The notes beneath the pieces were generated by a model, which made no database searches, was not told the origin of the DNA, and saw only the letters and a program-made list of their open reading frames with translations. Below are positions 1,976-28,134 of a stretch of DNA of 64,000 bases, one piece after another; positions within the stretch are counted from its first letter, which is position 1; each line of letters begins with the position of its first letter. The stretch lies in NCBI GenBank assembly GCA_046484585.1, contig JAWOIQ010000093.1:909-64908 (forward strand), read 5' to 3'. Made by a program: the position numbers and the translations under genes. The DNA comes from Desulfurivibrionaceae bacterium (GTDB lineage Bacteria > Desulfobacterota > Desulfobulbia > Desulfobulbales > JAGXFP01).

Positions 1976-1978
1976 CCG

Positions 1979-4385: not shown

Positions 4386-6308
4386 ATGGCTTTTATTCCG
4401 GCTGACTTCCATTTCCTGCGCCCCCTATGGCTGCTCGCCTTTATTCCGGCGGTTATGCTCTATTGGTGGCTGCGCCGCCGGCAGGCGAACGGCAGCGGTT
4501 GGATCAGGGCCGTCGACCGCTCTTTATTGCCTTATCTGCTCGACGGCAAGGCCGGCAAACAACAGGGCTGGGCCTTGGCTTTCCTCCTGGTCGGCTGGCT
4601 GCTGGCGACCCTGGCCCTGGCAGGACCGGCCTGGGAGAAGCTGCCCCAACCGGTCCGCAAAAAAACCGAGGCCCTGGTGATCATCCAGGACCTCTCCCTT
4701 TCGATGTTCGCCACCGATCTCAGTCCGGACCGGCTGACCCGGGCCAGACACAAATTGCTCGATCTCCTGGCTGAACGCCGGGAGGGGACCACTGCCTTGA
4801 TCGTATATTCCGGCGATGCCCACGTTGTTGTCCCCCTGACCGACGATACACGAACAATCTCCGGGATGGTTCCGGACCTGTCGCCGGCGATCATGCCGGT
4901 TTACGGCAGCAACCTCCCCGAGGCGGTATCACTGGCCCTGCAACTTTTAGAGGATGGAGCCGCCGGTCGGGGCAAGCTACTGCTGATCACCGATGAAGTT
5001 GAAAGTGATACATTGGGCAGGGTCAAAGATCTCCTGGCAGGCAGGGACTTAGTGTTGTCCGTTCTCGGAGTCGGTACCGGAGATGGCGGACCGATCCCGA
5101 AAGGCGACGGCGGTTTTTTAACCGACGAGCATGGAGAAATAATTATCCCCAGGCTGAACCGTGAAAATCTGATGAGTCTTGCCGCGATGAACGGCGGTCG
5201 ATATAGCGATATCCGTCTGGATGACACCGATATCGATTATCTGTTGGCGGCGCAGCCTCTGGAAGTTCGGGACGACCAATACCGGCAGGTCGATCGGGAG
5301 TTCGATCAATGGCGGGAGCAGGGCTATTGGCTGGTCCTGGCCACCCTGCCTTTGGCATTGCTCGCCTTCCGGCGGGGCTGGCTGCTGGGTTTGATCATCC
5401 TTCTCCTCTTGCCGGCCGCCGAATCCCGGGCCATGGGCTGGCAGGACCTGTGGCTTAGCAAAGATCAGCAGGGCATGCGGGCCCTTGAAAAGAACGATCC
5501 CCAGGAAGCGGCCAGGCTCTTTGAAGAACCGCTTTGGCAGGGTGTTGCGAGCTATCGGGCCGGTAATTACCAAGAGGCCGCCGGAAGTTTCGAGGAACCG
5601 GACAGCGCCGAGAATAATTACAATCGGGGCAACGCCCTGGCCAGGCAGGGCCGCCTGCAGGAAGCCGTCGAAGCCTACGATAAGGCATTGCAGCAAAACC
5701 CCAAACTTGAAGACGCCCGCCATAACAGGGATTTGCTCGAAAAACTGATGGAGCAGCAAAAACAGCAGGGCGGGCAGGGAAAGGATCAGGACTCTTCCAA
5801 AAACCAACCGGGAGATAAAGGCGATCAGGACCGGCAGGACGCCGGCCAGAAAGACCAACAGGATCAGGGCCGGGACGGGCAAGGTCAAAACCGGCAGCAA
5901 TCCCGGGACCAGACCGGTGATAAACAGGAAGGCAAGGATTCCTTGAACAAAGAGCAGCCGGAGCAACAAGGGCGGCAACAGGAACAACAGCAGGCCAACC
6001 GGCAGGAGGATAAACAAAAAGAAGACGCTTCCTCCGCGGACAAGCAGGCGGACCGCAAGGATAATCCTGAAGAGCAGGAGAAAAAGGCGGGCGGGAAGGC
6101 GGTTGGCAAGGCGGGTGAAGAGGAAAAGGCCGACAACCCGGAGAGCCTTACGGCCGAGGACCGGCAGAACGCTGAAAAACAGCAGGCCCTTGAGCAGTGG
6201 CTGCGGCGAATCCCGGATAATCCCGGCGGGCTCTTAAAACGCAAGTTCGAGTATCAGTCTCAGCAGAACCGTAACCGTAATCCCTCAAACAATCGGAAAA
6301 TATGGTAG
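4386..6308 (+). CDS. batB: vWA + TPR protein (BatB/BatC-like) with Q/D/K/E-rich low-complexity tail
   Basis: 640 aa with N-terminal TMs, a vWA domain (DLSLSM), TPR-like repeats (NYNRGNALARQGRLQEAVEAYDKALQQNP), then a ~170 aa charged low-complexity region. Confidence 0.75.
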   Translation: MAFIPADFHFLRPLWLLAFIPAVMLYWWLRRRQANGSGWIRAVDRSLLPYLLDGKAGKQQGWALAFLLVGWLLATLALAGPAWEKLPQPVRKKTEALVIIQDLSLSMFATDLSPDRLTRARHKLLDLLAERREGTTALIVYSGDAHVVVPLTDDTRTISGMVPDLSPAIMPVYGSNLPEAVSLALQLLEDGAAGRGKLLLITDEVESDTLGRVKDLLAGRDLVLSVLGVGTGDGGPIPKGDGGFLTDEHGEIIIPRLNRENLMSLAAMNGGRYSDIRLDDTDIDYLLAAQPLEVRDDQYRQVDREFDQWREQGYWLVLATLPLALLAFRRGWLLGLIILLLLPAAESRAMGWQDLWLSKDQQGMRALEKNDPQEAARLFEEPLWQGVASYRAGNYQEAAGSFEEPDSAENNYNRGNALARQGRLQEAVEAYDKALQQNPKLEDARHNRDLLEKLMEQQKQQGGQGKDQDSSKNQPGDKGDQDRQDAGQKDQQDQGRDGQGQNRQQSRDQTGDKQEGKDSLNKEQPEQQGRQQEQQQANRQEDKQKEDASSADKQADRKDNPEEQEKKAGGKAVGKAGEEEKADNPESLTAEDRQNAEKQQALEQWLRRIPDNPGGLLKRKFEYQSQQNRNRNPSNNRKIW

Positions 6309-6315
6309 GCGACGG

Positions 6316-8040
6316 ATGAGAAGAATTTATCTGACTTTATTGATGTGTCTTGCAGCCATGGTTTTCACGGATACCGCCCCGGCCGCAATTTCGGTGACCA
6401 TCGACCGGAACCAGATCGCTCTTGACGAGACCTTGAACCTGTCCCTCGTCAAAGATGACGGCGCCTCATTCTCGTCACCGGATCTGACCCCGCTGGAAAA
6501 GGATTTCCGGATTATCGGCCACAGCCGGAGCAGCAATACCCGGATCATCAACGGCTCGGTATCGTCTTCAATCACCCTTGATCTGAGTCTCGCCCCCAAG
6601 CGGTCGGGAATCCTTGAAATACCGCCGTTATCGATCGGCAATGAGATGACCGAGGCTTTGCAGGTCAAGGTGGTTACCCAGGCCCAGCCGAAGACCAGGG
6701 CTGACAATGCGCCGCTGTTTATCGAAACCGAACTCGACAAAGATACGGTGCCGGTCCAGGCCCAGGTGATTTTAACCCTGCGGATCTACTGGGCGGTTGA
6801 AGCGAACATAAACGAGCCCGCCGATCCGCAGCTTAATGACGCTTTACTGCAACGGCTCGATGACGCCACCTATAACAAGACGGTTAACGGAAGGAATTAC
6901 AAGGTATTCGAGCGGGAATATGCGATCTTTCCCCAGAAGAGCGGGGAGCTTCTAATCCCACAGCTTATCGTCCAGGCAACCGTCCCGGACCGGCAAAGGC
7001 GTGGCAACCTGTACGACTTTTTCGGGGCCGGGGGCCGGGAAGTGAAGCTGCGCAGCGGGACGAAAAAGGTCACGGTCCTCGAAAAACCGCCGGAATATCC
7101 GGCCGGGGAGGTATGGCTGCCGACCGACAAACTGACGATTGCCGAGGAGTGGAGCGCCGAGCCGGATCAATTGCAGGTCGGTGAATCGGTAACCGTAACC
7201 ATTGCCCTGGCCGGCCATGGTCTGCTGGCTGCCCAGTTGCCGCCGATCGAACTGCCCGAGACCGCCGGCCTCAAACTTTATCAAGGCAAGGCCGAAGTGC
7301 AGGATCTCACCAAGTCAGACGGAGTCACCGGGATCAGGAAAGAGAGCATCGCTCTCATCCCGGTTGAAGCCGGTCGCAAGGAATTGCCGGAAATCAGGAT
7401 TCCCTGGTGGAATCTGCAAGAGGGCAGGGTGGATTACGTAGTTATCCCGGCCCGGCAATTGACGATCAAAGCCGCTGCAACCGGCAGCGGCCAGGCAGGC
7501 CAGGCCGCCCCGCCGACGCTGAATCAGCCGAAACCGGGTGGGGCCTTGCCTGCGCAGGATATTACCATGCAGGAGTCGCGCTTCAATCGACCGCTGCTCT
7601 TTATCGCCGCCTTCCTGGCCCTGGCCTGGCTGGTAACCTTATCCTTTTTAATCAAGAGCAGGCGGCGCATGGCAGGACTGGCCAATGGAGGTGTAACGGA
7701 GAGCGGTGAGCAGGATAATCTCAGGGAAAAAGAGGCATTCCGGAAATTACGTCTTGCCTGCCGGGCCAACGATCCGATCAGGGCGAGAAAGGCCCTGATC
7801 GACTGGGCAAGAGCCACGCCGAACGGGCACGGGGTGCGATCCGTTTCCGACCTGCGGAAAATCTATCCCGGTTCCGGTCTCGCCGTTATCATCGAAGAAT
7901 TGGACCGAATTCTCTATGGCCGGGAAGATCAACCGACCGAATGGCGCGGTAAAAAACTGCTTGAAGAGCTGGAGGCAATCAGAAAAACCGGAGCGGCAAA
8001 GCCCCGGCACAAATCGTCATTGCCGCAACTTTATAAGTGA
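6316..8040 (+). CDS. batD: BatD-like oxygen-tolerance family protein
   Basis: 574 aa with a signal peptide, a long periplasmic region, one TM near residue 430 and a cytoplasmic tail. Last gene of the Bat-type operon. Confidence 0.65.
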   Translation: MRRIYLTLLMCLAAMVFTDTAPAAISVTIDRNQIALDETLNLSLVKDDGASFSSPDLTPLEKDFRIIGHSRSSNTRIINGSVSSSITLDLSLAPKRSGILEIPPLSIGNEMTEALQVKVVTQAQPKTRADNAPLFIETELDKDTVPVQAQVILTLRIYWAVEANINEPADPQLNDALLQRLDDATYNKTVNGRNYKVFEREYAIFPQKSGELLIPQLIVQATVPDRQRRGNLYDFFGAGGREVKLRSGTKKVTVLEKPPEYPAGEVWLPTDKLTIAEEWSAEPDQLQVGESVTVTIALAGHGLLAAQLPPIELPETAGLKLYQGKAEVQDLTKSDGVTGIRKESIALIPVEAGRKELPEIRIPWWNLQEGRVDYVVIPARQLTIKAAATGSGQAGQAAPPTLNQPKPGGALPAQDITMQESRFNRPLLFIAAFLALAWLVTLSFLIKSRRRMAGLANGGVTESGEQDNLREKEAFRKLRLACRANDPIRARKALIDWARATPNGHGVRSVSDLRKIYPGSGLAVIIEELDRILYGREDQPTEWRGKKLLEELEAIRKTGAAKPRHKSSLPQLYK

Positions 8041-8532
8041 GATCGTCCAAGACCATTTTTTGTCGCTGTTGATTTTTTCGGCCAAAGCTCCGGACAGGTC
8101 AAATGTGCAGGACGATTATTTCGCCCGGCTGGTTTAGTGCCGGAAGCCCTCGCCCTAATTACACGTAATCCCCCGAAGCATAGTAAGTATTCCGAGCCAC
8201 CGGACTCCTCCCAATATCTTTCCATCACTAATTAGATAAACCGCCAAGATAATCTTAGATATAGCTTGAAATTCGGTTTTGTTTTCAGTAAATTGCAAAA
8301 TCCCGAACAATGATGAATGACAATTCACCAACATTGATACGTGCTATGTTATTAATTAAAGGTATAAAATCGTCTCTTGGCCAAGGTTGTAAAAACGGTG
8401 CGCTTTCACTTTCAGCCATCGATTGTACAACCACACCCAATCCATTTACTGCCCGGCCGGGACATATGCCTCTTAAACAGTTAACCCATTTACTTTTTAT
8501 AAGAATTTATATGTTTTTTAAGGAGCTTAAAA

Positions 8533-9420
8533 ATGAGTGCCAAAATTATCAGTGGCGTCGAAATCGCCAAGGCCATCCGTAAGGAGTTAAAAGAAGAGGT
8601 AGAAGAACTCAAAGCAAAACATAATGTAGTCCCCGGTCTGGTTACCATTCTGGTCGGAGAAGATCCCGCTTCCGTTTCCTACGTTACGGCAAAAAGCAAG
8701 ACCGCCCACGCTCTGGGAATTTATTCGGAGCAGGTGGATATGCCCGCCGATACCACTGAAAAGGAACTGCTGGATCAGATCGACAAGTTCAATAAAGATA
8801 AAAAGATTCACGGCATCCTCGTTCAGTTGCCCCTGCCCAAGCATATCGACGAAGGCAAGGTCCTCTACGCAATTGATCCTGACAAGGATGTCGATGGATT
8901 CCATCCCGTAAATGTCGGCAAAATGGTCCTCGGCGAGCGTTGCTTTCTGCCCTGTACCCCCCATGGCATTCTTCAGATGTTGCAAAGAAGCGGTGTTGAG
9001 ACCAGCGGCGCCGAAGTCGTCATCCTCGGCCGCAGCAACATCGTCGGCAAGCCCATGGCCAACCTGATGCTGCAGAAACGTGCCGCGGGCAACGCCACAG
9101 TAACTCTCTGCCATACCCGAACCAAAGACACTGATTTCCACACCAAACGCGCCGATATCCTGATCGCCGCCGTCGGCGTCCCCAATCTTGTCAAGGCCGA
9201 TCAAGTTAAAGAAGGCGTTGTCATTATCGATGTCGGCGTCAATCGGGTCGGTATGTCTGAAAATGGTAAGGCCATCCTGGCCGGTGATGTGGATTTCGAA
9301 TCCGTCAAGGAGAAGGCTTCCTTCATCACCCCTGTGCCCGGTGGCGTTGGTCCGATGACCATTACCATGCTGATGAAAAACACCGTTCAGGCAGCAAAAC
9401 AGGCTACGGGTCTGCTATAA
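8533..9420 (+). CDS. folD: bifunctional 5,10-methylene-THF dehydrogenase / methenyl-THF cyclohydrolase
   Basis: 295 aa with the motifs PGLVTILVGEDPASVSYV, HGILVQLPLP and PVPGGVGPMT. AAGGAG RBS upstream. Confidence 0.95.
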   Translation: MSAKIISGVEIAKAIRKELKEEVEELKAKHNVVPGLVTILVGEDPASVSYVTAKSKTAHALGIYSEQVDMPADTTEKELLDQIDKFNKDKKIHGILVQLPLPKHIDEGKVLYAIDPDKDVDGFHPVNVGKMVLGERCFLPCTPHGILQMLQRSGVETSGAEVVILGRSNIVGKPMANLMLQKRAAGNATVTLCHTRTKDTDFHTKRADILIAAVGVPNLVKADQVKEGVVIIDVGVNRVGMSENGKAILAGDVDFESVKEKASFITPVPGGVGPMTITMLMKNTVQAAKQATGLL

Positions 9421-9508
9421 CCAGAACCTGCCGGTTTTCCGTTCGCCAGCCTCCGTTTTTTTTCAGGTCTGTGGCATTTTCTTCGGAAAATCCTTATATT
9501 GATACGTT

Positions 9509-9543
9509 CGGCGGATGTATTTGTGCGTCCGGCGGATGTATTT
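9509..9543. promoter_or_regulatory. tandem direct repeat CGGCGGATGTATTT x2 (21 bp register) upstream of cooS
   Basis: Copies at 9509-9522 and 9530-9543, about 45-80 nt upstream of ATG 9589. Candidate operator. Confidence 0.3.
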
Positions 9544-9588
9544 TCTAGTCATACCATTTAAGAATCGACGAAACAATTGAGGTACACG

Positions 9589-11592
9589 ATGGCTGTCAAA
9601 AGAAATGGATGTGAAGGCTGTGCGGATATAACCTGCGTGTCCACCAAGGAAGTTCTCTCCCAGGATATCGCTAAGAATGTAGTCACTGCCTATGACCGGA
9701 TCGCGTCACGTGGCATGGCCGCCTGCCTGTTCGGCTCCGGCGGCACCTGCTGTAAAAACTGTAATATGGGCCCATGCCAGATCATTGATGGAGTGGAAGA
9801 GATGATCGGGGTCTGCGGGGCTACCGCCGATACGGTCGCTTCCCGGAATATCGCGAGGACGATCGCCTCCGGAACCGCAGCCCATACCGATCATGCCAGG
9901 GAAATGATCAAGGGCTTTATCGCCACCGCCAAGGGCGAAACCGAAAACGAGATCAAGGACGTCGAAAAACTGCACAAGATCGCCGCCATTTACGATATCG
10001 AGGTGGAAGGGCGGGACAAGAATGAAATCGCTCTGGAACTCGGCGAAAAGGCCTTGGCCGAATTCGGCAGTCAGACCGACGATCCGATCACCATGCTCAA
10101 AAGAGCTCCGGAGAAGCGCCAGAAAATCTGGAAAAAACTCGGCGTCGAGCCGCGCGGTTTCGACCGGGAAGTGACCGAGATGATGCATCGCACCCATATG
10201 GGGGTCGATCAGGAATATCATAATATAATGTTGCAGGCCTCCCGCTGCGCCCTTGCCGATGGCTGGGGCTCGTCAATGCTTTCCACCGAACTGACCGACA
10301 TTATGTTCGGCACCCCGGTACCCCGCCGGGCCACGGTCGATCTCGGCTGCCTCAAACCGGATCAGGTCAACATCACCGTGCACGGGCATGAGCCGCTGCT
10401 CGCCGAGGCCCTCTGTATCGCCGCCCAGGAAGAAGACATGCAGGCTCTGGCCAAGAAGGCCGGCGCCAAGGGGATCAATCTGGCCGGGGTCTGTTGTACC
10501 GGTAACGAGATCCTGATGCGCCGCGGCATTCCGGTCGCGGCAGGCTTTGTCCAGCAGGAAATGGTCCTCGCCACCGGCGCGGTCGAGGCGATGGTGGTCG
10601 ACGTCCAGTGCGTCATGCAGTCGGTGGCCCAGGTCGCCAAGAATTTCCATACCGACATCATTACCACTAACTACCGGGCCAAGATGCCGGACGCCGTTCA
10701 TATCCAGTTCGAGGAAGAAGACGCGATGGGCAGCGCCAAGGAGATCCTCAAGAAGGCCATCTCCAATTACAAGAAGCGCAGCCCGGCCGCCTTTATTCCC
10801 ATCTCCAACAAGCTCGATGTAGTTGTCGGCTTCAGCCACGAGACCATCAACTACATGCTCGGCGGCAGTTTCCGGGCCAGCTATCGGCCCTTGAACGACA
10901 ACATCATCAATGGCCGGATTCGCGGGGTAGCGGCGATCGTCGGTTGCGACAACTATAAATATTCCGATGACGCCCATGAAATCATCGCCCGGGAGTTGAT
11001 CAAGAACAATATCCTGGTCCTGGCCACCGGCTGCGCGGCCACTTCCCTGGGCAAGGCCGGGCTGCTTCGACCCGAGGCCGCCGAGTTCTGCGGCGACAGC
11101 CTCGGCGAAGTCTGCGAGACCGTCGGCATGCCGCCGGTTCTGCATATGGGCTCCTGCGTCGATAACAGCCGGATCCTGATCGCGGCCACCGAGATGGTCA
11201 GGGAAGGGGGCTTGGGCGAGGATATTTCCGACCTGCCCGCCATCGGCACCGCCCCTCTCTATATGAGTGAAAAGGCGGTGGCCATCGGCCAGTATTTCGT
11301 GGCCAGCGGCGCCCAGGTGGTTTTCCAGAGCCTTCCGGTCAGCGGTGCCAAGGAGTTCGACAAGTACATGACCGAGGGCATGATGGAGACCTACGGCGCC
11401 CACTGGAATATCGCCGAGGATCCCAAGGAAATCGCCCGGATCATGATCGAGAAGATCGAGCAGAAGCGCGAGGCCCTCGGCATCAACAAGAAATCGGAGA
11501 GGGTTCTCTTCGACATGGATATGCGTCGTGATCTCGGCAGCGGCTCCGGCATTGGCGACGTTGGTTGCACCGGTCCGCAACACAAATCATAA
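9589..11592 (+). CDS. cooS: anaerobic Ni-dependent carbon monoxide dehydrogenase catalytic subunit
   Basis: Track ORF is 9577..11592 (TTG). ATG 9589 is preferred, with GAGG 6 nt upstream. Cys-rich N-terminus (CxxC...CCKNCxxGPC) and overall CooS/AcsA-like sequence. Confidence 0.9.
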   Translation: MAVKRNGCEGCADITCVSTKEVLSQDIAKNVVTAYDRIASRGMAACLFGSGGTCCKNCNMGPCQIIDGVEEMIGVCGATADTVASRNIARTIASGTAAHTDHAREMIKGFIATAKGETENEIKDVEKLHKIAAIYDIEVEGRDKNEIALELGEKALAEFGSQTDDPITMLKRAPEKRQKIWKKLGVEPRGFDREVTEMMHRTHMGVDQEYHNIMLQASRCALADGWGSSMLSTELTDIMFGTPVPRRATVDLGCLKPDQVNITVHGHEPLLAEALCIAAQEEDMQALAKKAGAKGINLAGVCCTGNEILMRRGIPVAAGFVQQEMVLATGAVEAMVVDVQCVMQSVAQVAKNFHTDIITTNYRAKMPDAVHIQFEEEDAMGSAKEILKKAISNYKKRSPAAFIPISNKLDVVVGFSHETINYMLGGSFRASYRPLNDNIINGRIRGVAAIVGCDNYKYSDDAHEIIARELIKNNILVLATGCAATSLGKAGLLRPEAAEFCGDSLGEVCETVGMPPVLHMGSCVDNSRILIAATEMVREGGLGEDISDLPAIGTAPLYMSEKAVAIGQYFVASGAQVVFQSLPVSGAKEFDKYMTEGMMETYGAHWNIAEDPKEIARIMIEKIEQKREALGINKKSERVLFDMDMRRDLGSGSGIGDVGCTGPQHKS

Positions 11593-11686: not shown

Positions 11687-14320
11687 ATGAAATCGGGTAG
11701 CCGTCTAGAACGGATTCTAAATTCAGGTGGTTTTGCCGTGACCGGCGAACTTGGGCCGCCGAAGAGTGGTGATCCGGAAGTTGTTCGAGAGAAGGCGCGT
11801 CTTCTTAAGGGTAATGTCGATGCCGTCAATATAACCGATTGCCAGACCGCTATTGTCAGGATGTCCAGCATCGGGGCCGGACTGATCACCCTCTCCGAGG
11901 GGGTCGAACCGGTAATTCAGATGACCTGCCGGGACCGGAACCGAATCGGCATGCAGAGCGATATCCTAGGGGCCGCCGCCCTGGGTCTGAAAAATCTGCT
12001 TTGTCTGACCGGCGATCACCAGAAATTCGGCAACCATCCCGGCGCCAAAGGGGTCTTCGACATGGACTCTATCCAGCTTTTGGGGATGGTCAGGGAGATG
12101 CGGGATGAAAAAAGGTTTCAGAGCGGCGACGAAATCAAAAACCACGAACCCCGGCTGTTTTTAGGGGCCGCCGCCAATCCCTTTGCCGAACCGGCCGACT
12201 ACCGGGCAGCCCGCCTGGGCAAGAAAGTTGCCAACGGAGCCGATTTCATCCAGACCCAGATCGTCTACAACGTCGATAAATTCAGGCAGTTCATGAAAAT
12301 GGTCTGCGATCTCGGTATCGACGAAAATGTTCACATCCTTGCCGGGGTTACGCCGCCCCGTTCCATCGGCATGGCCCGCTACATGAAAAATTTCGTCCCC
12401 GGCATGGATGTGCCGGACGAGGTTATCGACCGCCTCCGGGGGGCCGCCGACAAGGAGGATGAAGGCATTAATATTTGTGTCGACATTATCAACCAGGTCA
12501 AGGAGATCAAGGGCATCTCCGGCGTCCATATCATGGCCATCGAATGGGAAAGCGCGGTACCGGAGATCGTCAAACGGGCCGGTCTCGCCGATCGTCCGCG
12601 CTTTGACGATGAGCTTGCCACGGTGAGCCCACCCCGGGATACGCAAGTAGTTATCGGTGAAGCGAAAACCGCCGAGTCAGCCGAAGATAAAGACGAGATT
12701 ATTGCGGCGGCCAGGATCGAGGCGGAGAAGTTGATCGCCGAAGCCAGGGAAGAGGTCGCCAGAATGCGGACCCAAGCCGCTTCGACCGCCACCCCGACAA
12801 CCACTGTTCACGAAAGTATTGAATCAGACGATGCAGGAGAACACGAAATGAACGAAAGAGAACGTCAGATGGCTCTTGAAACGGTCCGGACCGGCCTTGA
12901 TGCCCTTAAAAAGTCCTTCGGACTGTCCAATGATCAATTTGAGGCCCTGGTTAAATTTGCCACTACCGAAGCTATTTTAATGAAGGAACCGCCGACCGGC
13001 GCCGCCGCAGCTTCGGCTCCTGCCACGCCGGCGAAACCGGCCGCTGCCGCGGAAACAACTCCGGCTGCGTCTGCCCGTCCTGCTCAGCCTGCTCCCGCGG
13101 TTGACACGGCCAAGGAAGAGGAAGCCAAGGCAGCTGCCGAATCCGCCAGAAAGGCCGAACTTGAGAAGAAAGCGGTGGAGGAAGCGGCCAGGAAGGCAGA
13201 GCTGGAGAAACAGGCTGCTGCCGAAACCGTTCCGCCGAAAGAGGTTAAAAAGGAAGCTGAACCTTCCGAGGCCAAGAAGAGCGCCGCCAAGCCCTCGGTC
13301 AAAAAGACCGGCGGCGGCGAAGCAGCCGGGGCTACCGCCCTGGCCCATGAGGAAACTCCCCTGGCCGAGCGTTCCACCAAGGTTGCCGAAGATAATTACA
13401 AAGTCAAATACACCGGCAAGATCAGGGAGACCGTTCTCGGCAGCGGTGACCATACCGTCAAGGTCGGCGGCGCCGATACCATGCCGTTCCAGCTCTATGA
13501 AGGCGAGATGCCGAACAAGCCCCTGATCGCCATGGACATTCTCGACTATGAGCCCGATGAATGGCCCGAGACCCTGACCCGCCATTTTGCCGGAGTGATG
13601 GACAACCCCCTGAACTGGGCCCGGAAATGCATCGATGATTATCAGGCCGAAGCCATCTGCCTGTCGCTGATGAGCACCGACCCCAACGGTATGAACCGCT
13701 CCGCCGCCGATGCGGCGAAAATCGCCGCCGAGGTCGTGAATAATATTGAAGTGCCCCTGATCCTCTGGGGCTGTGGCAACAGTGACAAGGATACCGAAAC
13801 CCTGCGGGAGATCACCTCCCTGGTCGGCGACAAGAAGGTCTGCCTGGCGCCGCTGTCCGATGCGAACTATCGCTCGATCGGCGCGACCGCCATGGCCTTT
13901 CATCACCCGATGGTTGCCGCTTCTCCCATTGACGTAAACCTTGCCAAGCAGTTGAATATTCTCCTCGAAAATCTCGGGGTTTCCCTTGATTCGGTCCTGA
14001 TCGATCCGTCCATCGGCGCCCTCGGTTACGGCATTGAATATACTTATTCGGTTATGGAACGGATTCGGCTGGCGGCAATGACCCAGCAGGACGAGAAACT
14101 GCAGGTGCCCTTTATCTGCAATCTCGGGCGCGAGGTCTGGAAGGCCAAGGAAACCAAATTGCCGACCGACGAGCTTCTCGGCGATCAAGAACGACGCGGC
14201 GTTCTGATGGAAGCCATGACCGCTTCCTGCATGCTGGTTGCCGGCGGAGAGGTTCTGATCATGCGGCATCCGCAGGCCATCGCGCTCACCAAGTCCCTGA
14301 TTGACGGACTTGTTGATTAA
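11687..14320 (+). CDS. metF/acsD: fusion protein: MetF-type methylene-THF reductase (N-term), A/P/E/K-rich linker, corrinoid Fe-S protein small subunit AcsD/CdhD (C-term)
   Basis: 877 aa uninterrupted ORF. Residues 1-~300 are MTHFR-family (LTGDH, ADFIQTQIVYN). Residues ~300-560 are low complexity with a duplicated ARKAELEK. Residues ~565-877 are the CdhD/AcsD TIM barrel (LILWGCGN, IDPSIGALGYGIEYTYS). Confidence 0.8.
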   Translation: MKSGSRLERILNSGGFAVTGELGPPKSGDPEVVREKARLLKGNVDAVNITDCQTAIVRMSSIGAGLITLSEGVEPVIQMTCRDRNRIGMQSDILGAAALGLKNLLCLTGDHQKFGNHPGAKGVFDMDSIQLLGMVREMRDEKRFQSGDEIKNHEPRLFLGAAANPFAEPADYRAARLGKKVANGADFIQTQIVYNVDKFRQFMKMVCDLGIDENVHILAGVTPPRSIGMARYMKNFVPGMDVPDEVIDRLRGAADKEDEGINICVDIINQVKEIKGISGVHIMAIEWESAVPEIVKRAGLADRPRFDDELATVSPPRDTQVVIGEAKTAESAEDKDEIIAAARIEAEKLIAEAREEVARMRTQAASTATPTTTVHESIESDDAGEHEMNERERQMALETVRTGLDALKKSFGLSNDQFEALVKFATTEAILMKEPPTGAAAASAPATPAKPAAAAETTPAASARPAQPAPAVDTAKEEEAKAAAESARKAELEKKAVEEAARKAELEKQAAAETVPPKEVKKEAEPSEAKKSAAKPSVKKTGGGEAAGATALAHEETPLAERSTKVAEDNYKVKYTGKIRETVLGSGDHTVKVGGADTMPFQLYEGEMPNKPLIAMDILDYEPDEWPETLTRHFAGVMDNPLNWARKCIDDYQAEAICLSLMSTDPNGMNRSAADAAKIAAEVVNNIEVPLILWGCGNSDKDTETLREITSLVGDKKVCLAPLSDANYRSIGATAMAFHHPMVAASPIDVNLAKQLNILLENLGVSLDSVLIDPSIGALGYGIEYTYSVMERIRLAAMTQQDEKLQVPFICNLGREVWKAKETKLPTDELLGDQERRGVLMEAMTASCMLVAGGEVLIMRHPQAIALTKSLIDGLVD

Positions 14321-14387: not shown

Positions 14388-16592
14388 ATGTCCAAGATTA
14401 TCTGTTCAGCCGCCATAAGGGGCGCTCACAAGATTATCGATATGGCCGAAGAGAAGTACGAAGAAGCCATCAAGAAATACGGTCCGGAACAGGAAGTCGC
14501 TTTTCCGAATACCGCCTACTTTCTGCCTGTGATTTATTCAATGCTGGGCGCCAAGGTAACCAATCTGGGCGACATGAAGGATATTTTCCTTGAAACCCGC
14601 AAATTACTGCCTCCCCAGGTGACGGACAATCTCTGGCTGCCATACCTGGCGCCCGCCCTCGACGCCGGCATGGCGACCTTTTTCGCCGAGGAGATGTTTG
14701 AGGCGATCCGTTATCTGGAGAACGGCGAATTCTACACCCAAACCGAGGATCCCTCGGCCGAGAATCTCTGGCTGGGCGCCGCGGACGACGTTATCTTCCG
14801 GAAGAGGGGGGTTGAATTTGTCGACGGCACCGCTCCCGGTTTCGCCGCCATCATGGGAGCGCCGCCCAACAAGGACGTGGCCAGCAAGATTGCCTTGGAA
14901 CTTCAGGAAAAAAATCTCTACATCTTCATGCACGACGAATCAGACGGAGTGCGGATGCCCGAACAGCTGGTCAACAACGATGTCCAGGTCGGCTGGGGGA
15001 CTCGGCTGGTGCCTTTCGGCCCGACCTATACCTCCGCGGTTTTCGCCATCGGCTTTGCCTGCCGGGTGGCCATGGCCTTCGGCGGCATCAAACCGGGCGA
15101 TTACCGGGGCAATCTGATCTATAACAAGAACCGCACCTTTGCTTTCGTCATGGCTTTCGGTCCGGTTTGCGACGAATGGTACGCCAATGCGGCCGGCGCC
15201 ATCAACTGGGGTTTCCCGACCATCTCGGACTACGATATTCCCGAAGTCCTGCCCACCGGAATCTGCACTTACGAACACGTGGTCAGCAACATCCCCCACG
15301 ACGAGATCGTCCAGAAGGCCATTGAAGTCCGGGGCCTGAAGGTCAATATCACCAAGATCGATATTCCGATGTCTTTCGGTCCCGCCTTTGAGGGTGAACG
15401 GATCCGTAAGGACGATCTGTTCATGGAATGCGGCGGCGGCCGGACCAACGGCGTCGAAGTCCTGATCTCCAAGGATCTCGACGAGGTGGAGGATGGCCGG
15501 GTTACCGTGGAAGGACCCGACATTAAAGATATTGAAGCAGGCCAGAACCTGCCGCTCGCCATACTGGTCGAAGTAGCCGGCCGCGAGATGCAGTCGGATT
15601 TCGAGCCGATTCTCGAACGCCAGTTCCATCACCTGATCAACTATATCCAGGGCATCATGCACATGGGCCAGCGTAATATCATGTGGGTCAGAATCGGCAA
15701 GGCCGCGGTCGAAAAGGGCTTCTCTTTCGAACATTTCGGCCGGGTCCTGCACGGCAAGCTCCACCAGGAGTTCGGTGCGATTGTCGATAAGATCCAGGTC
15801 AAGATCTATACCACCGATGAAAAGGTCCAGGAAATTACCGATCTGGCCCGCAATGTCTACGATGAACGTGACAAACGGCTGGGCAGCATGACCGACGAAA
15901 CCGAGGAAGTGTTCTACAGCTGCACCCTGTGCCAGTCTTTCGCTCCCAGTCATGTCTGCATTATCACCCCGGAAAGGATCGGGATGTGCGGCGCTTATAA
16001 CTGGCTGGACGGCAAGGCCTCCTACCAGATCAACCCGACCGGCCCCAACCAGCCGATCGAAAAGGGTGAGTGCCTTGACGAGGCCCTGGGCGTTTTCAAA
16101 GGTATTAACGATTTCGTCTCCCAGGCCTCCCGTGGCGCGGTAACCGATCTGTCCTGCTACTCGCTGATGACCGATCCGATGACCGCCTGCGGCTGTTTCG
16201 AAGCGATTGCCGCCATGCTCCCCCAGTGCAACGGCATCATGGTGGTCAACCGCGATTACATGGGCATGACCCCGAGCGGCATGAAGTTCACCACCCTGGC
16301 TGGCATGGCCGGCGGCGGCGCCCAGACTCCGGGTTTCATGGGGGTCAGCAAGCATTATATGACCAGCCGCAAGCTGTTCATGGCCGAAGGCGGTCTTGAG
16401 CGCGTGGTCTGGCTGCCCAAATCAATGAAGGACGAGATTGCCGACAAGCTCAAGGAATGTTGCGCGGAGATCGGCAAACCGGAACTCTTCGACATGATCG
16501 CCACCGAGGAGAACGGCACCACAGAGGAAGAAATCCTCAAGTTTCTCCAGGAAAAAGGCCATCCCGCCCTCTCCATGGAATCGGTCGTTTAA
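14388..16592 (+). CDS. acsB: acetyl-CoA synthase (A-cluster subunit of CODH/ACS)
   Basis: 734 aa with the A-cluster Cys region FYSCTLCQSFAPSHVCIITPERIGMCGAYNWLDGKA and a later CGCFE motif. AGGAG RBS. Confidence 0.92.
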   Translation: MSKIICSAAIRGAHKIIDMAEEKYEEAIKKYGPEQEVAFPNTAYFLPVIYSMLGAKVTNLGDMKDIFLETRKLLPPQVTDNLWLPYLAPALDAGMATFFAEEMFEAIRYLENGEFYTQTEDPSAENLWLGAADDVIFRKRGVEFVDGTAPGFAAIMGAPPNKDVASKIALELQEKNLYIFMHDESDGVRMPEQLVNNDVQVGWGTRLVPFGPTYTSAVFAIGFACRVAMAFGGIKPGDYRGNLIYNKNRTFAFVMAFGPVCDEWYANAAGAINWGFPTISDYDIPEVLPTGICTYEHVVSNIPHDEIVQKAIEVRGLKVNITKIDIPMSFGPAFEGERIRKDDLFMECGGGRTNGVEVLISKDLDEVEDGRVTVEGPDIKDIEAGQNLPLAILVEVAGREMQSDFEPILERQFHHLINYIQGIMHMGQRNIMWVRIGKAAVEKGFSFEHFGRVLHGKLHQEFGAIVDKIQVKIYTTDEKVQEITDLARNVYDERDKRLGSMTDETEEVFYSCTLCQSFAPSHVCIITPERIGMCGAYNWLDGKASYQINPTGPNQPIEKGECLDEALGVFKGINDFVSQASRGAVTDLSCYSLMTDPMTACGCFEAIAAMLPQCNGIMVVNRDYMGMTPSGMKFTTLAGMAGGGAQTPGFMGVSKHYMTSRKLFMAEGGLERVVWLPKSMKDEIADKLKECCAEIGKPELFDMIATEENGTTEEEILKFLQEKGHPALSMESVV

Positions 16593-16807: not shown

Positions 16808-18163
16808 ATGGCTTTAACCGGAATACAGATCCTCAAAATGCTTCCCAAGAAAAACTGCGGGGAGTGTGCGATTCCGACCTGTCTCGCTTTCGCTATGAAA
16901 GTAGCCGCCGGCCAATCCGAGATCGGCGAGTGTCCTTATGTAAGCGACGAGGTCAAGGAACAGATAGGTGAAGCATCGGCTCCTCCGATCAGGACCGTTA
17001 AAATCGGCAGCGCCGACGCCCCCTTCACCATGGGCGGCGAGACCTGCCTCTACCGCCATGAAAAAAGGTTTGAGAATCAGACCGGACTCGGTGTTCTGGT
17101 TACCACCGAAATGGCTGACGCCGATGTCGACGGCCGGGTTGAGCGCTTTAATTCCCTGCGCTACGACCGGGTCGGCGTCGAGATGAAGGCTGATCTTGTC
17201 GCCGTAAAGGATGCCAAATCGGATGAAGCCTCCTTTGTCGCCCTTACCAAAAAAGTTCTGGAAGGCGCCAAGGATGCCAAACTGATATTGATCAGCGACA
17301 GTGCCGCCCATCTGACCGCGGCCGCCAAGGCCTGCGGCGATCGGAAACCGCTGCTTTACGGGGCGACCCTCGATAACGCCTCCGAAATGGCCGGGGCCGC
17401 GAAAGAGACCGGCTGTGCCCTGGCGGTTAAAGGCGCCAATCTCGACAACACCGTCGAAATCACCGAAAAGCTCATGGGGGAAGGTCTCAAGGATCTGGCC
17501 ATCGATACCGGCGCCCGCACCATCCGCGCCTCCCTGGAAGATAACATTGTGGCCCGCAAGGCGGCGGTTACCAAAAAGTTCAAGCCGCTCGGTTTTCCGA
17601 CCGTCAATTTCCCCTGCGAGATGACCGACGATCTGATGATGGAGTCAATGATCTCCTCGGTTTTGATCGCCAAGTATGCCGGCATCATCATCCTTTCCGA
17701 TCTGCAGGGGGACACCCTGTTCCCGCTCTTCCTGGAAAGGCTCAATATCTTTACCGATCCCCAGCGGCCGATGGTGGTCGAGGAGGACATCTATCCCGTT
17801 AATGGTCCGGATGAGAATTCTCCGGTTATTATTACCTGCAACTTCTCGCTGACCTACTTTATCGTTTCCGGCGAAGTTGAAAGCAGCAAGGTGCCGACCT
17901 GGCTGCTGATCAAGGATACAGAGGGTCTCTCGGTTCTTACTGCCTGGGCCGCCGGAAAATTCGGCGCCGATATGATCGCTCAGTTTATGAAAAAATCGGG
18001 AATCGCCGACAAAGTCAAGCATCGCGACTTGATTATCCCCGGTTACCTGGCCTCCATGAAAGGCGAATTGGAAGAAGAGCTGCCGGACTGGACCATCCTC
18101 ATCGGTCCTCGGGAAGCGGGTCATCTCCCCGCATTCTTGAAGGAATGGAAACCGGCCAACTGA
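16808..18163 (+). CDS. acsC: corrinoid iron-sulfur protein large subunit
   Basis: 451 aa with the N-terminal [4Fe-4S] motif LPKKNCGECAIPTCLAFA and a CdhE/AcsC-like body. GGAGG RBS. Confidence 0.9.
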   Translation: MALTGIQILKMLPKKNCGECAIPTCLAFAMKVAAGQSEIGECPYVSDEVKEQIGEASAPPIRTVKIGSADAPFTMGGETCLYRHEKRFENQTGLGVLVTTEMADADVDGRVERFNSLRYDRVGVEMKADLVAVKDAKSDEASFVALTKKVLEGAKDAKLILISDSAAHLTAAAKACGDRKPLLYGATLDNASEMAGAAKETGCALAVKGANLDNTVEITEKLMGEGLKDLAIDTGARTIRASLEDNIVARKAAVTKKFKPLGFPTVNFPCEMTDDLMMESMISSVLIAKYAGIIILSDLQGDTLFPLFLERLNIFTDPQRPMVVEEDIYPVNGPDENSPVIITCNFSLTYFIVSGEVESSKVPTWLLIKDTEGLSVLTAWAAGKFGADMIAQFMKKSGIADKVKHRDLIIPGYLASMKGELEEELPDWTILIGPREAGHLPAFLKEWKPAN

Positions 18164-18292: not shown

Positions 18293-21200
18293 ATGAGTAT
18301 ATTTTTACACATGAATATCGAAATTAATGGAAACAGCATAACGGCGGAAGAGGGGGTCACCATCCTCGCAGCCGCAGAGCGTTCGGAAATATATATTCCC
18401 ACCCTTTGCAGCGTCAAAGGCAGGAATTCCGAGGTCCCCTGCGAACTGTGCTGCGTTGAAGTTGCCGGTCGGGATGGTCTGGTCCGGGCATGCGAAACTC
18501 CCATCGAGGAAGGCATGTCAATCACCACCGATTCGAAAGCGATTACCGAACATCGCCAGGCCAAACTGGCCATTCTCGCCGAGACCCATTTCGGGGACTG
18601 CAAGGCGCCCTGCAACCTTACCTGTCCCGGCCAGATCAATGTTCAGGGCTATATTGCCCATGTCGCCAAGGGAGAATACGAGGAAGCCGTCCGCCTGATT
18701 ATGGAACGCAATCCTTTCCCGTTTTCGGTGGGCAGGGTCTGTCCCCGTTTCTGTGAAACCAGATGTCGGCGGATCCTGGTCGATGAACCGGTCTCCATCA
18801 ATCATCTCAAAAGATTTGTCGCCGACTGGTGCATGACCAACAAGATCGACCTGAAAATCGGGCGCGACAAGCCGACCGGCAAGAAAATCGCCGTTGTAGG
18901 AGGCGGGCCGGCCGGTTTGAGCGGCGCCTATTATCTGTCGCGCAAGGGTCATGATGTTACGGTCTTCGAAGCCGCCCCCAAACTGGGCGGCATGCTCCGC
19001 TACGGCTTACCGGAGTATAAAATTCCCAAGGATATCCTCGACTACGAGATCTCCACGATTCTGCGAACCGGCATCTCGGTTAAGCTCAATCAGCGCTGGG
19101 GCGAAGATTTCAATCTTCAGAACCTGCGTGACCAAGGTTATGACGCCATTTTATTGACCATCGGCGCGCCCGTCGACGAACCCCTGGATATCCCGGGATC
19201 CTCGTTGAGCAATGTTCTTCCGGCCATAAATTTCCTGAAGAACATCAATAGCGGCAAGAACATCGATTACGGCCGGCGTGCCGCCGTAATCGGCGGTAAC
19301 AACGTTGCCATGGAAACGGCCCGCTCCCTGATCAGAGCCGGGGTTGAAACCGTTACCGTGATCTATCCGCGGACCAAGACCGAGATGGCGGCCAATCAGC
19401 GCAATATCCGTGAGGCCGAAAAGGAAGGCGTCCAGTTTCTGGTGATGGCTACCCCGGTCCAGATTTCGCCGGCCGATAGCGGTCTTGATGTAGAACTGAT
19501 GCGAATGAAGCTGGGTGAACCTGACGAGAAGGGCGTGCGGAATCCCGAAGCTATTCCCGGTTCATCCAACATCATCCAGGTCGATACGGTTATTCATTCC
19601 CTGGGCCAGAAGGCCTGCGATAATGCCAGCTTTAAAGGGGGTTCTCTTGAAGAGTCCCTGGAGTTGACCCCGACCAACAATATTAAAGCCAATCCCCGTG
19701 ATTTTCTTACCAACCAGGATGGCATCTACGCGGCCGGTGACGCGACCAGCGGCCCCCGTTCGGTTATCCAATCGGTGGTGGCCGCCCGCCGCGCGGCAAA
19801 CAACATAAACAGCCAGGTGATGGGGGTAGAGAAGGAGCCCGCCGACAGCCGCTTCAATTTCAGCCGGGGCCGTTCCTTCGACGATGTCGATCTGCGTAAC
19901 TTCGAGGGCATTAAGGTCAAGCTGCGGGAGAAGATGCCGGAAAGGCCGCCGGAGACCTCCACCCAGGACTTTGACGAGGTCAAACTCGGTTTCACCGAAA
20001 AGATGGCGCTGCGCGAGGCGAAACGTTGCCTGTCCTGCGGCTGCAACGCCTATGACCGGTGCGACCTGAAGCGCTTATCCGAAGATCACAATATAAACCT
20101 CAACAAGACCGGCATGGGCAGGGAACCGGTTTATGCCAGAGATAATTCCCATCCCGTTATTCAGATCGATCTCAACAAGTGTATTTACTGCCAGCGCTGC
20201 AAGAACAGCTGCGATTACAAGGCCATCGACCTTTCCGCCGAATCCTTCGACGTCAAGGGCCGCCCGGAGAACATCTCTTTCAGGTTCAACGAGAACTGCG
20301 TGAATTGCGGCGAATGTGTCGACAACTGCTCCACCGGCGCCCTTATCAAGAAGGACCGCCTGGTCCCGATCACCAACGAAGAGGTGAGGGAGGTTCGTTC
20401 GACCTGCCCCTATTGCGGGGCCGGCTGCCAGATCATCCTCAAGGTCAAGGGCAACACCCTGATGGAGGTCGATGCCGATCCCGATCTTGCCCCCAACTAC
20501 GGCGCCTTGTGCGTCAAGGGCCGTTTCGGCCAGAAGTTTGTTCAGCACCGCGACCGGTTGACCAAACCATTAATCCGGCAGGGCGGCCAGCTTGTCGAAA
20601 CCAGCTGGGATGAGGCCCTGAACGTGGTGGCCAAGAAATTTTTCGACCTCAAGGCCATGTATGGATCGGATTCGATCGCCGGTTTCAGCTGCGCCCGGGC
20701 CACCAACGAAGAAAATTACCTGATGCAGAAATTCATGCGGACGGCGATCGGCACCAACAATATCGATCACTGCGCCCGGCTCTGACACGCTCCCACGGTG
20801 GCCAGTTTGGCCCTCACCTTCGGAAGCGGCGCAATGACCAACTCCATAGCCGACATGAAGCAGACCGACCTCTTCTTCATGATCGGCAGCAATCCCGACA
20901 CCAGCCATCCGACCATCGGCCTCCGGGTCCATCAGGCCATTGACCGGGGCGCCAAGCTCGTCGTGGTAGATCCCCGCAGAACCAGGCTGGCCGAGCGGGC
21001 CGACCTCTGGATCCGGATCAAACCGGGAACCGATGTGGCCTTCATGAACGGGATGATGAGCGTCATCCTCGCCGAAGATCTCTGGGACAAAAAATTCGTC
21101 GAGGAGCGGACCGAGGATTTCGATTACCTGAAAAGCGTGGTCGAAAAATACTCGCCCGATATCGTCGAGGAGATTACCGGGGTATCCGAGGAGCAGCTGC

Positions 21201-22420
21201 GCCAGGCCGCGAGAATGTACGCCGCCGAGGGACGGCACGCGATCTACCACGGCATGGGCATCACCCATTACGTGACCGGCACCGACCGGGTCAAGAGTAT
21301 CGCCAACCTGGCCATGCTCTGCGGCAAGGTCGGCCAGGCCGGCGGCGGCTGCAACCCCTTGCGGGGCCAGAACAATGTGCAGGGGGCCTGCGATATGGGC
21401 GCCCTGTTCAATACCCTGCCCGGCTACGGCAGCTTCGATAACAGCGAGCTTTTCAAGACCTTCGAAAAGGCCTGGAAAGTCAAGCTGCCCCGGCGGCCCG
21501 GCAAACCGGCCACCGAGGTCTGGGACAATGTCCTCAAAAAAGATATCCGCGGTCTTTACGTGTTCGGGGAGGATCCGGTAGTAGCTGATGCCAATATCTC
21601 CCATGTCCGGCAGGCCTTGGAAGAGGTTGATTTCCTGGTGGTTCAGGATATCTTCCTGACCGACACCGCCCAGATGGCCGATGTGGTCCTGCCCGCCGCC
21701 TGCTATGCCGAGAAGGAAGGGACTTTCACCTGTACCGAACGGCGGGTGCAGCGGGTCCGCAAGGCGGTGGAGCCGCCCGGCGAGGCCCGGCCCGACTGGC
21801 GGATTTTTTGCGAACTTTCGAAAAAGATGGGCTATGAGATGGACTACGCTTCGGCCGAGGATATCTTCGAGGAGATCCGCACCCTCCTGCCCCAGTATAA
21901 GGGAATCACCTATAAACGCCTTGACGAGGTCGGTCTGCAATGGCCGGTACCCAGTGAAGATCATCCGGGCACCGAGGTATTGCACACCGAATCGTTTACC
22001 AGGGGCAGGGGACTGTTTATCCCGGAGGAGTATATCCCCCCGGTCGAGCTTCCCGATGACGAGTATCCGATGTCCTTTACCACCGGCCGGGATCTGTCCA
22101 GGTATAACTTCAGCAGCATGACCGGCAAGACTCCGGAGATCGATGAGATCAGTCCGGAATGTTTTGCCGAGATCACACCCGTTGATGCAGAACGGCTTGG
22201 CATCAAGGATAAGAGCCGGGTTCGCCTGGTATCGCGGCGCGGATCGGTAGAGATGCGGGCCAAGATCACCGATCGTACCCAGGAGGGTACGGTATTCGCG
22301 ACCTACAACCATCTGGAAACCCTGGTCAACCTGCTTACCCTGGACGCCCTCGATCGTCTTTCCAGAACGCCCGAATACAAGCTATGCGCGATCCGTGTGG
22401 AAGTAGTACCCGAAAATTAG
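18293..22420 (+). CDS. fdhA: selenocysteine-containing formate dehydrogenase alpha subunit fused to N-terminal 2Fe-2S and GltD-like NAD(P)H/FAD oxidoreductase domains (Sec at TGA 20783-20785)
   Basis: ORFs 18293..20785 and 20798..22420 share a frame. Read-through gives [30 protein letters not shown], the FDH Sec motif. GxGxxG VVGGGPAGLSGA, 4Fe-4S motifs and a molybdopterin domain are present. ATG 18311 is an alternative start. Confidence 0.85.
20797..20818 (+). promoter_or_regulatory. candidate SECIS hairpin for fdhA UGA
   Basis: GGT-GGCCA [GTT] TGGCC-(CTC bulge)-ACC, starting 12 nt after the TGA. Confidence 0.55.
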
Positions 22421-25400: not shown

Positions 25401-25578
25401 CATTGAAATGGTAAAGGTCGACAAGAAACCGAAAGCCGAGACCGTGGTGGCCTCCTGTAAGGCCTGCGGGATCTGCGCCGCGCATTGCCCGACTTTTGCC
25501 ATATCGATGGGCGGTTTCACCAATGAACAGATTACTTCCCAGATCGAGGCCTTTGGCGAGGCCCTAGAGGAGGCTTAA
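22471..25578 (+). CDS. hdrA: selenocysteine-containing large HdrA-like flavoprotein with tandem HdrA modules and C-terminal ferredoxin domain (Sec at TGA 22699-22701)
   Basis: ORFs 22471..22701 and 22717..25578 share a frame. Read-through gives [21 protein letters not shown], where canonical HdrA has DCSxCIL. Two GxGxxG sites ([18 protein letters not shown]). C-terminal [12 protein letters not shown] and [12 protein letters not shown] motifs. Confidence 0.85.
22723..22738 (+). promoter_or_regulatory. candidate SECIS hairpin for hdrA UGA
   Basis: GAGGCC [GGTC] GGTCTC, a 6 bp stem with one G-U pair, starting 22 nt after the TGA. Confidence 0.5.
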
Positions 25579-27294: not shown

Positions 27295-27328
27295 TCAATG
27301 TGCAGCGCTTGGTTCGGCCTCGCCGTAA

Positions 27329-28111: not shown

Positions 28112-28134
28112 ATCCGTTCCCTGATGATCGTTTA

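Follow-up and report, generated by a model that had tools for sequence, protein, structure and literature searches.

A methylene-tetrahydrofolate reductase joined to the corrinoid iron-sulfur protein small subunit in Desulfobulbia and Thermodesulfobacteria, with a conserved, probable internal start codon in the Desulfobulbia genes

A 64,000-nucleotide stretch of DNA from a Desulfurivibrionaceae bacterium (GenBank assembly GCA_046484585.1, contig JAWOIQ010000093.1, positions 909 to 64,908 of the forward strand; here called the window) contains a single open reading frame (ORF), metF::acsD, in which a methylene-tetrahydrofolate (methylene-THF) reductase (MTHFR) is followed by AcsD, the small subunit of the corrinoid iron-sulfur protein (CoFeSP) of the Wood-Ljungdahl pathway. 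The locus raises the question of whether the joined gene is real, what it produces, and whether the reductase is held next to the corrinoid protein that accepts the methyl group. We found that the fusion gene is genuine and selectively maintained, and its sequence suggests that in Desulfobulbia it probably makes two proteins, the fusion of MetF with AcsD at 95 kDa and AcsD by itself at 52 kDa. The gene and its two folded domains are as follows.

11687 to 14320, plus strand: whole fused metF::acsD ORF, ATG start, 877 aa, 94.6 kDa (ORF finder, Pfam, and NCBIfam)
11687 to 12601, plus strand: MetF domain, residues 1 to 305, a methylene-THF reductase TIM barrel, probably of the MetV-dependent type
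13394 to 14317, plus strand: AcsD domain, residues 570 to 877, a complete CoFeSP small subunit

The initial annotation of this DNA had proposed an 877-residue ORF with an MTHFR-family domain in the N-terminal ~300 residues and a CdhD/AcsD barrel in the C-terminal ~310 residues. The ORF finder returned exactly these coordinates, and hidden Markov model scans with PF02219 and the CdhD family supported both domains. In Pfam, PF02219 (MTHFR) matched residues 6 to 299 over its full profile (positions 1 to 287 of 287; E = 4.3e-38; 131.7 bits against a cut-off of 24), and PF03599 (CdhD) matched residues 582 to 823 (E = 1.4e-40). In NCBIfam, the model for the subfamily of AcsD and the delta subunit of the ACDS (acetyl-CoA decarbonylase/synthase) complex, NF003376, matched residues 571 to 876 with 373 bits against a cut-off of 280, while the narrower AcsD models scored under their cut-offs (NF040759 WLP_AcsD, 303 against 430; TIGR00381, 204 against 253). 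The C-terminal 317 residues aligned end to end with a solved CoFeSP small subunit, 2H9A_B (residues 5 to 303 of 310; E = 2.7e-81), and matched that of Moorella, 4DJD_D, with an E value of 1e-79. The best NCBIfam match of the MetF domain was the reductase half of PRK08645 (YitJ-type homocysteine S-methyltransferase/MTHFR), and a profile built from 27 relatives of the domain matched solved MTHFRs with E values of 1e-16 to 1e-26. Each half is an unexceptional member of a well-known family. The whole 877-residue protein is identical to a protein from a Desulfurivibrionaceae metagenome-assembled genome at NCBI (P0001), which is named only "acetyl-CoA decarbonylase/synthase complex subunit delta."

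Judged from its sequence, the MetF domain looks catalytically competent. Residues E21, D110, and Q191 align with E28, D120, and Q183 of E. coli MetF and were unchanged across 50 fusions. The E. coli sequence used for this alignment agrees with the established numbering (E28/T59/Y60/H88/D120/A177/Q183/F223); the roles of its residues, including that of Glu28 as the general acid, are those given in the Matthews/Ludwig literature. The E. coli FAD-contact positions T59, H88, and R118 correspond to N48, Q78, and T108 in the MetF domain. Since the departures from E. coli at the FAD-contact positions and at Phe223 are the same as in 27 MetV-associated relatives, the domain probably belongs to the MetFV class and not to the NADH-dependent E. 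coli class. It is 54% identical to an unfused MetF adjoining MetV in a metagenomic contig (L084) and 45 to 57% identical to MetV-MetF fusions. Within Desulfobulbia, the identity per 20-residue block of the domain is mostly 80 to 96% and ranges from 63 to 96% over all blocks.

We examined 80 related loci and scanned species with one genome per species. Relatives of the fusion protein are encoded in at least 578 species-representative genomes, and the carriers belong to Desulfobulbia (Desulfobulbaceae, Desulfocapsa, Desulfurivibrio, and "Candidatus Electrothrix") and to Thermodesulfobacteria (Thermosulfurimonas and Thermodesulfatator). Both domains lay within one open frame, with synteny kept, in 67 of the 80 loci, each from a different species; since one frame holds both domains in so many other loci, the fusion is far beyond chance. 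Wherever the gene was complete the joint frame had no stop, with L030, L058, and L074 as the exceptions. The best 120 database matches were all 830 to 918 aa long and all had both Pfam domains, and they were named either ACDS delta subunit or MTHFR. Clustering at 50% left just two representatives that span both domains, so the family is tight in sequence and broad in species. Two gene layouts occur, that of Desulfobulbia and a second, here called variant A, which comprises the Thermodesulfobacteria-type loci and a group with tetratricopeptide repeats (TPR) in the linker. The TPR-linker group appears to be Dissulfuribacteria-like, judged from the names of its best MetV matches. One MetF-TPR-AcsD protein of 1038 aa (P0121), with tetratricopeptide repeats in its linker, was found among the representative-library architectures.

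The sequence between the two barrels contains a second possible start of translation.

12835 to 12840, plus strand: internal Shine-Dalgarno (SD) sequence AGGAGA, which runs from the third base of codon 383 through the Gly384 codon GGA to the second base of the Glu385 codon
12848 to 12850, plus strand: in-frame ATG, Met388, 7 nucleotides past the SD sequence; predicted start of a 490-residue, 52.5-kDa AcsD-long product

Among 50 database homologues, Met388 is invariant and the AGEHEM motif nearly so. At the nucleotide level, [A/G]GGAGA-N7-ATG was present in 60 of 60 distinct Desulfobulbia genes, with T at the first base in one, and the Gly384 codon was GGA in every one of the 60. At 34 other invariant glycine columns the codons were mixed (the commonest codon at 33 to 65%; GGA about 12% when pooled). 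When 384 conserved degenerate codon columns were scanned without bias, Gly384 alone had zero synonymous variation. Among 17 conserved methionine columns, a conserved upstream SD sequence was found at M1 and M388 only. The site at codon 388 resembles the ribosome-binding sites of acsB (CAGGAGT-N7-ATG) and folD (AAGGAGC-N7-ATG) and is stronger than that of M1, and the position of Met388 coincides with the N terminus of unfused AcsD. At codon 388, an in-frame ATG thus stands at the canonical distance from an SD sequence, and its conservation exceeds that required by the protein. Since this SD sequence and ATG are conserved and Gly384 is always GGA, the gene probably yields two products. A scan for promoters and terminators inside metF::acsD returned nothing above the shuffled expectation. 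In three TPR-type variant-A loci (L012, L075, and L076), a common GAGGAGG-N-ATG was found at a linker methionine at residues of about 376 to 402, in the coiled-coil part of the linker (…EEAK.MASQKEAEV…); with three sequences only, it may be an internal start or simply Glu-Glu codons. As no position is conserved across variant A, an internal start in that variant was rejected.

The region between the barrels, ~265 residues in all, is composite. Its layout was drawn from the conservation profile of 68 full-length sequences, the invariant columns in 50 database homologues, and an AlphaFold model.

Residues 1 to 305: MetF barrel
Residues 306 to 387 (12602 to 12847, plus strand): variable read-through segment, including the helix at residues 333 to 364
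Residues 306 to 332: variable
Residues 333 to 364 (12683 to 12778, plus strand): predicted long helix, moderately conserved, with A342, A346, and A353 invariant
Residues 365 to 385: variable
Residues 387 to 431 (12845 to 12979, plus strand): helical hairpin, 50 to 78% identity, homologous to the N-terminal extension of unfused AcsD
Residues 432 to 558 (12980 to 13360, plus strand): disordered leash, 31% Ala, 16% Glu, 13% Lys, and 11% Pro, with no Cys
Residues 570 to 877: AcsD barrel

The initial annotation had described ~260 residues of A/P/E/K-rich linker. That description held for residues ~432 to 558, to which the low complexity is limited, but not for the rest, where the helix at residues 333 to 364 and the conserved residues 387 to 431 lie. 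The duplicated ARKAELEK segment that it had reported was found at residues 487 and 501 (nucleotides 13145 to 13168 and 13187 to 13210; 19 of 24 nucleotides identical). Tandem Repeats Finder detected no array in the linker, and the duplication, short and imperfect, lies in low-complexity sequence and has no evident significance. The AlphaFold model of the fusion had a mean predicted local distance difference test score (pLDDT) of 65 and a predicted template modeling score (pTM) of 0.46, with the linker mostly under a pLDDT of 50, too uncertain to support conclusions on how the domains touch. The segment from the end of the MetF domain to M388 was free of stop codons in 60 of 60 Desulfobulbia genes, with a length of 48 to 97 codons (median, 83). 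The other two frames have a stop density of 0.062 per codon, which gives a stop-free segment a probability of about 0.005 per sequence. Since the segment is stop-free in all 60 genes, the read-through is maintained as well.

How the two genes may have been joined is suggested by contig L084, which carries folD-cooS-metV-metF-acsD-acsB-acsC(::acsE), with metF and acsD as separate genes whose products are 54% (MetF) and 53% (AcsD) identical to the respective domains of the window. The metF/acsD junction of L084 consists of TAA, 15 nucleotides with a ribosome-binding site within them, and ATG. Its unfused AcsD has an N-terminal extension of ~70 residues with a helical motif, …ILSDLRLGLKSISEGIKNLEEGIEKLE…, that matches the conserved mid-region element of the fusions. 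We infer that the fusion arose by read-through between adjoining metF and acsD genes of an ancestral operon with the order folD-cooS-metV-metF-acsD-acsB-acsC, and loss of a metF stop codon such as that of L084 would explain it. The inter-domain region would then be former intergenic and extension sequence: the helix, the ancestral AcsD hairpin, and a leash of ~125 residues. In the same contig (L084 9565 to 11946), AcsC is fused to an AcsE-type pterin-binding domain in a protein of 793 aa, which by its sequence would be a different way to tether the methyl-transfer chain to CoFeSP.

The genes around metF::acsD include several candidate partners.

8533 to 9420, plus strand: folD (translation and conserved synteny)
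9577 to 11592, plus strand: cooS/acsA, carbon monoxide dehydrogenase (CODH) (translation and synteny; the syntenic homologue in L084 matches Pfam Prismane)
14388 to 16592, plus strand: acsB, acetyl-CoA synthase (synteny; the L084 homologue has CdhC and ACS_CODH_B_C domains)
16808 to 18163, plus strand: acsC, CoFeSP large subunit (PF04060 FeS and PF03599), the expected partner of the AcsD domain
22717 to 25578, plus strand: hdrA-like gene, part of a candidate electron-input module for the MetF domain
25583 to 26188, plus strand: mvhD/FlpD, with an in-frame TGA at 25787 to 25789, the other part of that candidate module

The acsB and acsC genes lie directly downstream of the fusion, in an order that is kept in related loci. 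The Desulfobulbia layout, including that of the window, is folD-cooS-metF::acsD-acsB-acsC-fdh-hdrA-mvhD, where fdh encodes formate dehydrogenase. In variant A, the upstream part is folD-cooS-hdrA-mvhD-[4Fe-4S dicluster protein]-[second FlpD/MvhD]-MetV-metF::acsD, and the downstream part is metF::acsD-acsB-acsC-AcsE-fdh. An HdrC-like 4Fe-4S protein is encoded in the cluster of variant A only, or at another locus.

Neither acsE nor metV had been noticed as a separate gene in the window, and our searches agreed: tblastn of AcsE and MetV from a related locus against the 64-kb window found none (best E > 2), and no acsE or metV appeared in Pfam and NCBIfam scans of its large ORFs (most of those of at least 150 aa). 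In 8 variant-A loci, MetV (PF12225) is encoded directly upstream of the fusion, and acsE lies within the variant-A cluster. In related Desulfobulbia, AcsE is a lone gene beside DAHP synthase and rpoN, and an orphan FeS-FlpD-MetV trio is found at a separate locus with no adjoining metF. Since related Desulfobulbia encode both genes elsewhere, their absence from the window does not mean that their functions have been replaced. The parts list is the same in both layouts, and gene positions alone differ. The idea that AcsD itself acts as the methyltransferase, as in the archaeal ACDS, was rejected on the lone AcsE homologues in Desulfobulbia genomes (about 69 to 70% identity), and loss of MetV from Desulfobulbia was rejected on the orphan trio kept elsewhere. 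The trio (4Fe-4S protein, FlpD, and MetV) was seen in L086 (8003 to 9669) and L087, away from any metF. Three genes upstream of the trio, L087 also encodes a 511-aa MTHFR+DUF5981 (MetF-MetV) fusion, which may be the second metF of genome papers; the L087 coordinates of these features are 3651 to 5186 and 8003 to 9669.

Several neighbors of the fusion have features of their own. At 953 aa the HdrA-like protein is unusually long; it has ferredoxin domains at its two ends and contains two stretches of the pyridine-nucleotide-disulfide oxidoreductase type, and no HdrB or HdrC gene follows it. In MvhD/FlpD, the in-frame TGA (GG-U-QLGECHY) probably encodes selenocysteine in place of a cluster-ligand cysteine, and the same split (about 85 aa plus about 170 to 185 aa) occurs in related loci. 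The formate dehydrogenase (18293 to 22420) is one gene with an in-frame TGA at 20783 to 20785, at the Mo-ligand position (HCARL-U-HAPTV), and is probably a selenoprotein; its N terminus has a 2Fe-2S and GltD/NfnB-like FAD/NAD(P) module, and nearly every related locus shows the same split by a single stop. At 1016 to 8040, directly upstream of the cluster of Wood-Ljungdahl genes, is an operon of the Bat/aerotolerance-like type (MoxR AAA ATPase, DUF58, DUF4381, VWA, VWA/TPR, and BatD). On the minus strand at 26900 to 31000 is a small defence- or mobile-element-like island with an HNH-motif protein (27329 to 27754), a phosphorothioate-DNA-restriction-like endonuclease (28135 to 28932), a Dcm cytosine methylase (28929 to 30068), and, by its translation only, a HigB/HigA-like pair (30373 to 30982).

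We consider it probable, though far from assured, that the locus is at once a maintained MetF-AcsD fusion, a product of read-through, the source of two proteins, and a means of leashing the reductase beside its corrinoid acceptor. AcsD of either origin would join AcsC in CoFeSP. Within the fused fraction, the CH3-THF-forming reductase would be held flexibly beside the methyl-accepting corrinoid and would work with MetV, the 4Fe-4S protein, MvhD, and HdrA as electron-input partners. AcsE, encoded elsewhere in related genomes, would catalyse the methyl transfer in trans, and the internal start would supply more AcsD than MetF, matching AcsC. The reductase would be physically tethered to the corrinoid protein, as first proposed, but probably only in part, since the conserved SD sequence and ATG at codon 388 imply untethered AcsD too. 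Channelling or a supercomplex is plausible, and so long a leash would fit independent action just as well. It is possible, if doubtful, that in the clade of cable bacteria and many sulfur disproportionators the leashed MetV/MvhD/HdrA reductase (possibly electron-bifurcating) and CoFeSP-acetyl-CoA synthase form one supercomplex, with the internal start setting the ratio of tethered to free AcsD. Such a supercomplex would be a bacterial counterpart of the archaeal ACDS that reaches back to the folate reduction step.

Several observations weigh against the account of a maintained, two-product, leashed fusion. The frame is broken in three related loci (L030, L058, and L074), where sequencing errors are possible but the breaks could be real. 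Variant-A relatives have no internal SD sequence and ATG, with Leu or a gap at the Met388 position and no conserved alternative; the two-product model is therefore not family-wide, and the fused chain of variant A must itself be a working AcsD. No HdrB/CCG-domain gene was found in the scanned ORFs of the window, beside hdrA or elsewhere, or in the scanned cluster genes of L016, L086, and L087; the electron-input complex is thus unlike the Moorella enzyme that has been characterised. The AlphaFold model, of moderate quality, shows no contact between the domains. The ~125-residue disordered leash is long enough to let them act independently, and the geometry therefore does not imply channelling. 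The three broken frames, together with the GC-rich and compositionally repetitive linker, could also suggest that a frameshift or a missed stop in the low-complexity stretch had joined two separate genes, as an assembly error would. But the same single ORF comes from hundreds of samples and several sequencing projects, and the frame stays open in dozens of independently made assemblies whose linkers vary in both length and sequence. An assembly artefact is effectively refuted, with practically no chance of being correct.

The other alternatives concern what the genuine fusion does. A stop codon may have been lost between co-expressed neighbors without consequence, so that the domains work as if separate and gain no channelling or complex-level benefit. 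The existence of the unfused adjacent metF-acsD arrangement, the long, disordered, and poorly conserved residues 432 to 558, and the apparent ease of other Wood-Ljungdahl fusions (AcsD-CODH, AcsB-AcsD, AcsC-AcsE, MetV-MetF, and MetV-MetF-MetH) are all consistent with such neutrality. Yet the frame stays open across a fast-evolving segment from Thermodesulfobacteria to Desulfobulbia (about 50% identity), a helix with invariant residues is conserved within the read-through segment, and there are almost no reversions in about 70 loci, where a neutral fusion would be expected to re-split somewhere; we regard a neutral fusion as somewhat unlikely. It is unlikely that AGGAGA-N7-ATG serves only as an SD-like translational pause within the ORF that aids MetF folding, or as a signal at the RNA level, with the 877-aa protein as the only product. 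Slowing of elongating ribosomes by SD-like sequences within bacterial genes has been reported, although this is debated, and the site comes ~80 codons after the MetF barrel ends, at about the point where the domain emerges from the ribosome tunnel. A pause, however, needs no invariant ATG at canonical spacing, and the site coincides with the N terminus of unfused AcsD and matches the bona fide starts of the same operon in motif and spacing. Quite unlikely, in our judgment, is the case in which AcsD function comes only from the 52-kDa product or from cleavage of the linker, the M1 product being MetF with a dispensable tail. The conserved internal SD sequence and ATG, stronger than the M1 ribosome-binding site, and a disordered leash open to proteases at residues 432 to 558 would fit this case. 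Against it, variant A keeps the fusion without a conserved internal start and with no second acsD in the cluster, and a stop after residue ~305, the simplest way to end MetF, is absent in 60 of 60 genes.

We found no description of a metF::acsD fusion in the searchable literature; paywalled accounts are possible. The fusion goes without mention in the genome papers of T. dismutans, Thermosulfurimonas F29, Dissulfurimicrobium, and "Candidatus Desulfobulbus rimicarensis," and in papers on groundwater cable bacteria, D. autotrophicum, D. alkaliphilus, and the sulfate-reducing partners of anaerobic methanotrophic (ANME) archaea. Genome papers of carriers list metF or a "complete WL pathway" and leave the fusion unremarked. 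The initial annotation recognised no described architecture in the fusion, which agrees with the absence of a paper, but the protein itself is abundant in public databases under single-function names. What is most notable is the conserved internal start and the presence of the fusion in cable bacteria and sulfur disproportionators. Either of its names, "ACDS delta subunit" or "MTHFR," could lead pathway tools to judge the Wood-Ljungdahl pathway incomplete. In the Dissulfurimicrobium paper, KEGG scores the pathway as incomplete and MTHFR genes are listed only outside the cluster; single-function naming of the fusion may be the cause of that result.

Methylene-THF reduction is energetically the least understood step of the Wood-Ljungdahl pathway, and its electron donor and any coupling to bifurcation are still under debate, model acetogens included. 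The lineage-wide covalent linkage of reductase and corrinoid protein gives a natural way to purify the native complex and learn what its partners are, and among the carriers Desulfurivibrio, Desulfocapsa, and Thermosulfurimonas can be cultivated. The conserved internal start would also be a clean, testable example of one bacterial gene serving as both a fusion and a separate gene.

Both halves of the fusion, and its internal start, have counterparts among known systems. The solved AcsD/CfsB proteins of Carboxydothermus hydrogenoformans (2H9A/2YCL/4C1N) and Moorella thermoacetica (4DJD) are 310 to 323 aa long, and residues 570 to 877 cover essentially the whole subunit (E about 1e-80); as in other Wood-Ljungdahl clusters, the gene stands beside acsB and acsC. 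The solved subunits are free-standing and have no N-terminal extension, whereas here the MetF domain, the hairpin, and the ~125-residue leash precede the barrel. In IF2, ClpB, and CheA, bacterial genes that give two in-frame isoforms by internal initiation, the likeness lies in an in-frame ATG with its own SD sequence that is conserved at synonymous sites; unlike these, metF::acsD is predicted to give a short form that is one whole ancestral gene product.

The MetFV-type methylene-THF reductases of acetogens include the MetFV-HdrABC-MvhD complex reported for Moorella thermoacetica, work that PMC10553843 cites as its reference 79. The fusion resembles these enzymes in having hdrA and mvhD in the same operon and a MetF domain that appears to be of the MetV-adjoining class, and in variant A the hdrA-mvhD-FeS-mvhD-metV genes lie immediately upstream of the fusion. 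It differs in the joining of MetF to AcsD. Moreover, neither HdrB nor a full HdrABC set was found in the genes scanned, and in Desulfobulbia metV with its FeS and MvhD neighbors has moved to another locus.

CoFeSP is also brought physically to its reaction partners in AcsC-AcsE (L084), AcsB-AcsD (P0242, 1209 aa), AcsD-CODH (P0139, 1122 aa), and the archaeal ACDS complex, of which CoFeSP is an integral part, but none of these joins it to the folate reductase step. The YitJ-type proteins (PRK08645) and the MetV-MetF-MetH protein (P0186, 1681 aa) likewise join a producer of CH3-THF to its user, which in the MetH case is corrinoid-dependent. In metF::acsD, however, the acceptor is the CoFeSP of acetyl-CoA synthesis rather than methionine synthesis, and the AcsE domain lies outside the fusion. 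Conceptually, metF::acsD is closest to an MTHFR fused to methionine-synthase modules.

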